From assembly GCF_003334385.1 (NCBI RefSeq), contig NZ_QOWN01000185.1: a DNA stretch of 397 bases; one strand, given 5' to 3'. A program made the translations under genes and the position numbers. Source of the stretch: Escherichia coli. GTDB lineage: Bacteria; Pseudomonadota; Gammaproteobacteria; Enterobacterales; Enterobacteriaceae. Of the stretch, positions 1 through 297 are shown in pieces. Every line of letters starts with the position of its first letter. Position 1 is the stretch's first letter. The notes under the pieces were generated by a model that did no database searches, was not told the DNA's origin, and was given only the letters and a program-made list of their open reading frames with translations.

Positions 1-297
1 CAGCGTGATGTTGCTGCACTTGATGCCAGATACTCGAGGGAATTAGCCGATGCGAGAGCTGAAAATGAAACTCTGCGTGCTGATGTTGCCGCTGGTCGTA
101 AGCGCCTGCGGATCAACGCCACCAGCTCCGGTACCGTGCGTGAAGCCACCGGCACCTCCGGAATGGATAATGCAACCGGCCCCCGACTGGCAGACACCGC
201 TGAACGGGATTATTTCACCCTCAGAGAGCGGTTGATGACAATGCAGAAGCAACTGGAAGGGGCGCAGGACTATATCCGCACTCAGTGTATTAACTAG
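1..297 (+). CDS. Rz: Rz-family i-spanin (inner-membrane spanin subunit), C-terminal periplasmic portion; 5'-partial, start codon lies upstream of the window
   Basis: Frame 1 is open from nt 1 to a TAG at 295-297 and translates to QRDVAALDARYSRELADARAENETLRADVAAGRKRLRINATSSGTVREATGTSGMDNATGPRLADTAERDYFTLRERLMTMQKQLEGAQDYIRTQCIN*. From memory this aligns nearly residue-for-residue with the C-terminal two thirds of lambda Rz (shared blocks QRDVAALDA, DVAAGR, VREAT, PRLADTAERDYFTLRERL, TMQKQLEG, QC near the C-terminus). The layout also matches: a helical segment, a Gly/Ser/Thr/Ala-rich linker (nt 115-183), a second helical segment, and a Cys near the C-terminus (nt 286-288). It is missing from the supplied ORF track, presumably because it has no in-window start codon. 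Confidence 0.9.
   Translation, partial: QRDVAALDARYSRELADARAENETLRADVAAGRKRLRINATSSGTVREATGTSGMDNATGPRLADTAERDYFTLRERLMTMQKQLEGAQDYIRTQCIN
36..40 (+). promoter_or_regulatory. Putative Shine-Dalgarno for Rz1, lying inside Rz coding sequence
   Basis: GAGGG at 36-40 with a 9-nt spacer to ATG at 50. An internal ribosome binding site is needed because Rz1 starts inside Rz in a different frame. Confidence 0.45.
50..235 (+). CDS. Rz1: Rz1-family o-spanin (outer-membrane lipoprotein spanin subunit), complete, embedded in the +1 frame of Rz
   Basis: The ORF runs from ATG 50-52 to TGA 233-235 and encodes MRELKMKLCVLMLPLVVSACGSTPPAPVPCVKPPAPPEWIMQPAPDWQTPLNGIISPSESG. It has a basic N-terminus, a hydrophobic core and a lipobox V-S-A-C with the predicted lipidated Cys20 at nt 107-109. 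Gly at +2 and Ser at +3 (no Asp at +2) predict outer-membrane sorting. The mature part is very proline-rich (12 Pro in ~42 residues) with a single Cys30 at nt 137-139. The C-terminal half (CVKPP, WIMQP, PDWQTPLNGIISPSE) is close to lambda Rz1 as I recall it. A GAGGG Shine-Dalgarno sits at 36-40, 9 nt upstream of the ATG. Confidence 0.88.
   Translation: MRELKMKLCVLMLPLVVSACGSTPPAPVPCVKPPAPPEWIMQPAPDWQTPLNGIISPSESG

Follow-up and report, generated by a model that had tools for sequence, protein, structure and literature searches.

The nested spanin genes of the window

The stretch of Escherichia coli DNA analysed here (the window; 397 nucleotides of contig NZ_QOWN01000185.1, assembly GCF_003334385.1) carries a pair of phage lysis genes that are read from the same bases of the plus strand in different frames. 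The outer frame is the 3' two-thirds of Rz, the gene of the i-spanin (positions 1-297), and a complete gene of the o-spanin Rz1 (positions 50-235) lies wholly within it in the +1 frame. A first-pass annotation made from the letters alone had placed Rz in frame 1 up to position 297 and Rz1, fully embedded, at 50-235 in the +1 frame; both coordinates and frames proved correct.

No stop interrupts frame 1 between base 1 and the TAG codon at 295-297, and its 98 codons translate into QRDVAALDARYSRELADARAENETLRADVAAGRKRLRINATSSGTVREATGTSGMDNATGPRLADTAERDYFTLRERLMTMQKQLEGAQDYIRTQCIN. The translation matches the Pfam family PF03245 'Bacteriophage Rz lysis protein' (Phage_lysis) with E = 5.8e-41, covering positions 30-125 of the 126 in the model, and PHROG 13 'Rz-like spanin' with E = 1.8e-46. 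In a protein alignment it is 74% identical to residues 58-152 of lambda Rz, with a single gap of one residue located in the linker, and it is collinear with coiled-coil 1, the linker and coiled-coil 2. The encoded part corresponds to lambda Rz residues 58-153, that is, the distal portion of coiled-coil 1, the linker, coiled-coil 2 and the C-terminal cysteine. The C-terminal Q-C motif (Q151 and C152 in lambda) is kept, with the cysteine encoded by TGT at 286-288; in lambda, C152 is a disulfide site close to the Rz-Rz1 interface (Cahill et al. 2017, PMC5295617). Base 1 of the window corresponds to about codon 55 of the 152-155 codons in full-length relatives. The 5' part of Rz with the N-terminal transmembrane anchor is located outside the window, and close full-length relatives have hydrophobic N-termini, e.g. 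MLSAFTVILLVVCGALWLA. An open reading frame (ORF) of 53 amino acid residues that starts with GTG within the Rz frame (136-297) corresponds to PHROG 2934, a family of 'unknown function'. Its 63-position profile matches Rz residues 36-97 with E = 3.1e-37, and the family looks like a collection of truncated Rz annotations and not like a separate protein.

The second frame extends from an ATG at base 50 to a TGA ending at 235 and encodes 61 amino acid residues (MRELKMKLCVLMLPLVVSACGSTPPAPVPCVKPPAPPEWIMQPAPDWQTPLNGIISPSESG). The assignment of this ORF to Rz1 draws on the ORF list, on family matches, on identity with lambda and on conservation among homologs. The protein covers positions 1-40 of the 41 in the model PF06085 'Lipoprotein Rz1 precursor' (E = 1.9e-19), matches PHROG 3198 (E = 1.7e-29) and is 70% identical to lambda Rz1 in a protein alignment. 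Both translations thus affiliate with the spanin families to which they had been assigned from the letters alone. A pattern match identified Rz1 as a prolipoprotein with the signal peptide MRELKMKLCVLMLPLVVSA, which is followed by CG. The lipobox V17-S18-A19-C20 is encoded at 98-109, and its cysteine (TGC, 107-109) is predicted to carry the lipid and to become residue 1 of a mature protein of 42 amino acid residues, 12 of which are proline. Membrane sorting of lipoproteins is governed by the residue at position +2 (the Lol sorting rule). Sorting of Rz1 to the outer membrane is expected, because this residue is glycine and not aspartate. A purine-rich, Shine-Dalgarno-like sequence, GAGGGAA, is located at 36-42, 7-13 nucleotides 5' of the ATG; it lines up with the GAAGGAG upstream of Rz1 in lambda and is the putative ribosome-binding site of the embedded gene.

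The residues known to matter in lambda Rz1 were mapped onto the protein of the window. Cys30 (TGC, 137-139) is the equivalent of C29, the site of the disulfide in the lambda Rz1 homodimer, and the motif PPAPP (residues 33-37, 146-160) is the equivalent of the lambda penta-proline at residues 32-36 (Cahill et al. 2017). The only change within this motif is P34 to alanine in lambda numbering, and P34 is the sole penta-proline position in lambda that tolerates alanine (Cahill et al. 2017). Mutations at P32, P33, P35, P36, I39, W46, L50 and I54 block lysis in lambda (Cahill et al. 2017), and all eight residues, as well as C29, are kept in the window. The salt bridge between E150 of Rz and R59 of Rz1 in lambda is replaced by a threonine in Rz and a serine in Rz1; complementary changes from charged to polar residues at these two positions have been described in lambdoid phages (Cahill et al. 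2017).

Conservation of the embedded frame

For the comparative analysis, a set of 80 IMG/VR loci together with 11 annotated records supplied 51 distinct full-length Rz genes. All 51 contain in the +1 frame, at the same place, a lipoprotein ORF of 60-75 amino acid residues with the lipobox cysteine. The lipobox reads VSAC|G in 41 of the homologs and VVGC or VSGC in the remainder. The +1 frame is uninterrupted in every one of these genes, including those of the HK97, mEpX2, phage L (P22-like), Klebsiella and Salmonella Oslo types, for which blastn aligns just the first 76-123 nucleotides of the window.

The heterozygosity of the Rz codon positions was calculated for the 45 sequences of the lambda-like group. 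At third positions it amounts to 0.221 in the N-terminal flank, 0.067 in the overlap with Rz1 and 0.226 in the C-terminal flank, which corresponds to an approximately 3.3-fold lower diversity within the overlap. Inside the overlap, codon positions 1, 2 and 3 have nearly equal values (0.054, 0.037 and 0.067) and the usual periodicity is flattened. Such flattening is expected, because position 3 of Rz is position 2 of Rz1 and position 1 of Rz is position 3 of Rz1. The first-pass annotation had predicted an intact Rz1 frame across homologs and suppressed synonymous change in Rz over 50-235, and both were observed. The pattern is indicative of selection on both frames, i.e. of dual coding, with the qualification that the sequences are not independent of each other.

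Comparison with lambda and other spanins

Lambda Rz/Rz1 has the same +1 gene-within-gene layout as the pair in the window. Expressed as a fraction of the Rz length L, Rz1 occupies 0.46-0.86 in the closely related prophage of E. coli O157:H16 (locus L002) and 0.48-0.87 in lambda. For about 70% of embedded spanins, the start of the o-spanin falls at about 0.4-0.5 L and its end at about 0.9-1 L (Kongari et al. 2018, PMC6139136), so that L002 and lambda end slightly short of the typical range. With Rz1 at 50-235 entirely inside Rz at 1-297 and in another frame, the window pair is of the embedded type. Embedded spanins are well documented (Cahill et al. 2017; Kongari et al. 2018), in agreement with the earlier statement that the arrangement is a known one and not a novel system.

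The window pair and lambda have in common Cys20, the disulfide cysteine of Rz1, the proline-rich motif, the I/W/L/I residues, the C-terminal cysteine of Rz and the Shine-Dalgarno-like sequence. They differ in several details. Rz of the window has a serine in place of C99, the linkers of Rz and of Rz1 are each one residue longer, the Rz1 motif is PPAPP instead of PPPPP, the E150-R59 pair is T and S, and the C-terminus of Rz reads QCIN instead of QCR. The next gene also differs: in relatives of the window it is a hypothetical ORF of 74 amino acid residues on the same strand, whereas lambda has bor on the opposite strand.

The spanins of HK97, mEpX2, phage L, the Klebsiella phage and Salmonella phage Oslo have the same embedded +1 architecture, the same lipobox place and the same position after holin and endolysin, whereas their mature o-spanin sequences are largely unlike Rz1 of the window (e.g. 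KSPPPVQSQRPEPAAWAMEK...). In the Klebsiella phage ST101-KPC2phi6.1, the product of a separate ORF of 58 amino acid residues (locus L090, 2193-2369) was labelled 'Rz1 lytic protein' by the depositor. It was rejected as an o-spanin, as it is without signal peptide and lipobox. The real o-spanin candidate of this phage is an unannotated +1 ORF embedded in its Rz gene, MRKLKMMLCSASLIMVVGCSS....

Relatives, genomic context and mosaic structure

The closest relatives of the window belong to a group of lambdoid elements of the Shiga toxin (Stx) phage type (phages ASU11, VT2-Sakai and H-19B and the O157:H16 and O121 prophages), with nucleotide identities of 90-99% over the full window. The identity is 97% with Escherichia phage ASU11, which was obtained by mitomycin C induction, 90-96% with many Stx-converting phages and 99.2% with prophages of E. 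coli, among them those in O157:H16 and O10:H32. One and the same Rz1 protein is encoded by the window, by the O157:H16 locus L002 and by the viral loci L004-L012, and the lysis-cassette context is common to the Stx-type group. In the collections searched, no record was 100% identical over the full window. Related copies occur in 4,534 of the 5,426 complete E. coli genomes, with a median of 2 and up to 13 copies per carrying genome.

In phage ASU11 the gene order is holin S, lysozyme R, Rz and then terminase, and R abuts Rz. In the O157:H16 prophage, Rz is preceded by genes for a class II holin, YdfR, a lysozyme, an antirepressor and an ORF of 43 amino acid residues; it is annotated as 'lysis protein' and followed by the 74-residue hypothetical ORF and, further on, by terminase. 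The genes of the O121 prophage are arranged likewise, and here too an antirepressor gene lies between those for lysozyme and Rz. The antirepressor and the small ORF (43-49 amino acid residues, PHROG 4906) are located between lysozyme and Rz at L002 3906-4827 and L092 3011-3729, so that the lysis cassette of both closest prophages examined is interrupted by a moron. Rz directly follows holin and endolysin in lambda, HK97, mEpX2, phage L, cdtI, 4A7, 673R7, the Klebsiella phage and Salmonella phage Oslo. The near-identical loci with holin and lysozyme upstream of Rz agree with the first-pass assignment of the locus to a phage or prophage lysis cassette. The accompanying expectation of an endolysin and a holin just upstream holds for the relatives as far as the presence of both genes is concerned, but 'just upstream' is only approximate, as the antirepressor intervenes in the two closest prophages. 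The annotation of the O157:H16 prophage lists the gene of the terminase large subunit (L002 7802-9463) as a pseudogene that contains an internal stop, and this relative may be a defective prophage.

Bases 1-161 of the window are identical to the prophage of E. coli O121 RM8352, and bases 125-397 are identical to the O157:H16 prophage. From these two blocks, a recombination junction within 125-161, hence inside the overlap of Rz and Rz1, is deduced. The window is thus a mosaic of two prophage types, an instance of ordinary lambdoid mosaicism.

The serine at the lambda C99 position of Rz is encoded by AGC at 124-126. A cysteine (TGC) is found at this position in 51/51 other homologs compared. 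The underlying difference of A versus T at base 124 leaves Rz1 unchanged, as Pro25 is encoded by either CCA or CCT. A search with a 61-mer located the serine allele in six complete E. coli O121 genomes, and a 31-mer across the serine codon had zero matches in IMG/VR, in GTDB contigs with one genome per species and in JGI metagenomes. In the IMG/VR loci L020 and L024, Cys30 of Rz1 is changed to serine (PVPSVKPP) and both cysteines of Rz are kept. Which of the three spanin disulfides is present varies naturally, and the Rz1 change complements the cysteine-to-serine change in Rz of the window.

Downstream gene and further features

The start of a further gene, not part of the spanin pair, is located at 311-397 on the same strand. 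It comprises a GGAG ribosome-binding site (311-314), an ATG at 321 and the first 25 codons. In near-identical prophages the gene encodes a cysteine-containing hypothetical protein of 74 amino acid residues (WP_000735653.1; L002 5321-5545). The downstream ORF matches PHROG 2571 (E = 1.7e-27, profile positions 100-172 of 291) and had no matches in Pfam, NCBIfam and PADLOC. The 74-residue ORF was compared with the genes located after Rz in cdtI and 4A7 and is unrelated to both, as it is to bor of lambda.

Scanned against Rfam with a permissive cutoff, the window yielded only a chance-level match to a small nucleolar RNA (12 bits versus a gathering score of 40), and a promoter scan of the window found none. 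A weak terminator-like hairpin (357-372; GGAAC-N6-GTTCC followed by a T-rich tail) is located inside the downstream ORF. One such hairpin was observed versus 0.3 expected in shuffled sequences, and it is probably due to chance. For Rz, weak matches were all that was found in PADLOC (ZorG/DUF3348, E = 0.007) and in the PDB (ATP synthase subunit b, E = 0.006). Both results were attributed to generic alpha-helical or coiled-coil similarity as the putative cause.

Alternative readings of the locus

Several observations weigh against the reading of the locus as an embedded spanin pair, and some of them favor the alternative that only Rz is a gene and the +1 ORF its by-product, which gives no functional protein. 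The length of the ORF lends Rz1 no support and was discarded as evidence: when synonymous codons are permuted without a change in the Rz protein or its codon usage, an ATG-initiated +1 ORF of at least 61 amino acid residues persists in 44% of cases, and the corresponding probabilities are 0.058 under codon-order shuffles and 0.11 under uniform synonymous resampling. The Pfam match of Rz1 is not independent of that of Rz, because DNA homologous to lambda Rz necessarily yields a +1 translation similar to lambda Rz1. RefSeq lists Rz as 'lysis protein' in the closest E. coli genomes and leaves Rz1 unannotated (L002 4839-5297; L092 3737-4204), and NCBIfam scans of Rz and Rz1, as of the downstream ORF, had zero matches. 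The lower proportion of variable Rz third positions inside the overlap (25/60, versus 64/89 outside; Fisher p = 3e-4) favors the embedded pair, but the p-value is only indicative, because the sequences are related and recombining. Moreover, the N-terminus of Rz and the genes upstream lie outside the window, as does any indication of whether the element is an active phage or a decayed prophage. With ORF length uninformative and the family match non-independent, the argument is built on comparison among homologs and on sequence features. This evidence makes a by-product scarcely credible. The frame is open with its lipobox cysteine in 51/51 homologs, some of which are so diverged in DNA that most of the overlap does not align; the synonymous-site diversity of Rz falls about 3.3-fold only inside the overlap; the lambda-critical residues of Rz1 are all kept; and nonsense mutants of lambda Rz1 with Rz intact block lysis (Cahill et al. 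2017). The nested pair is considered real because of homology, lipoprotein features and conservation across homologs, and not because of ORF length.

A third gene on the minus strand, antisense to Rz and Rz1, was considered for an ORF of 106 amino acid residues (43-363). This ORF is the longest of the window, matches PHROG 17757 (unknown function) with E = 3.9e-44 and is stop-free in 43 close relatives. Yet it is in codon register with Rz, so that its stops arise only from TTA, CTA or TCA codons of Rz, of which the window has one (TTA at 43-45), and shuffled sequences keep an equal openness in 30-38% of cases. It starts with a TTG inside the next gene and is broken in 8/8 divergent homologs (lambda, 4A7, 673R7, HK97, mEpX2, phage L, Klebsiella and Oslo), in which Rz and Rz1 are intact. 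The antisense ORF was rejected as a shadow ORF on the grounds of register, shuffles and breaks in divergent homologs, a functional gene being extremely improbable, and PHROG 17757 probably comprises genes that were called on the wrong strand of this conserved DNA. A different kind of alternative accepts both spanin genes, with their frames intact where seen, and places them in a defective or cryptic prophage without a role in lysis, similar to the rzpD/rzoD-type remnants of K-12. Many E. coli prophages of this kind are degraded. The closest full-window matches are chromosomal prophages, one with the terminase pseudogene described above, carrier genomes hold a median of 2 and up to 13 related copies, and the 5' end of Rz lies beyond the window. 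On the other hand, both frames are intact with all critical residues present, and copies with 97% identity occur in the inducible phage ASU11. A cryptic element deserves some weight but is judged unlikely, and it concerns the state of the element and not the identity of the genes.

Proposed function and significance

The best explanation of the window, with a probability of about 0.96, is that it represents the distal part of a lysis cassette with an embedded two-component spanin, carried by an E. coli prophage or phage that is lambdoid and resembles Stx phages. The two frames, their family membership, the lipoprotein features, the conservation of both frames and the context in relatives were shown. 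By homology to lambda, Rz would be a type II inner-membrane protein, of which the window encodes the periplasmic coiled-coil domain. Rz1 would be translated independently from its own ribosome-binding site and the ATG at base 50, processed as a short proline-rich lipoprotein and sorted to the outer membrane. Based on homology with lambda, Rz and Rz1 may each form disulfide-linked homodimers that connect C-terminus to C-terminus across the periplasm. After removal of the peptidoglycan by holin and endolysin, the spanins would disrupt the outer membrane as the last step of lysis, probably by fusion with the inner membrane. Spanin homodimers, the periplasm-spanning complex and outer-membrane disruption have been described (Cahill et al. 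2017; Kongari et al. 2018), and the requirement of both Rz and Rz1 for lysis is known in lambda alone (Cahill et al. 2017).

The rare serine allele of Rz should be harmless. For function in lambda, the disulfide at C99 is 'irrelevant', and either C152 of Rz or C29 of Rz1 is needed (Cahill et al. 2017); since the equivalents of both are present in the window, a functional protein is expected. That the loss of the C99 equivalent marks a spanin variant with dimerization via two disulfides rather than three seems quite improbable. If true, such a two-disulfide variant might change the dependence on the host Dsb system or the kinetics of lysis.

The embedded Rz/Rz1 pair is already known from detailed published descriptions and occurs in thousands of prophages and in most genomes of E. 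coli, and the knowledge of spanins is unchanged by this locus. It offers a clean example of complete out-of-frame gene nesting and a lesson for annotation: RefSeq misses Rz1 in the closest genomes, NCBIfam is without a matching model, and the shadow ORF on the opposite strand has a PHROG family of its own. Its main use is as a landmark for the late (lysis) region of a Stx-type lambdoid prophage or phage.

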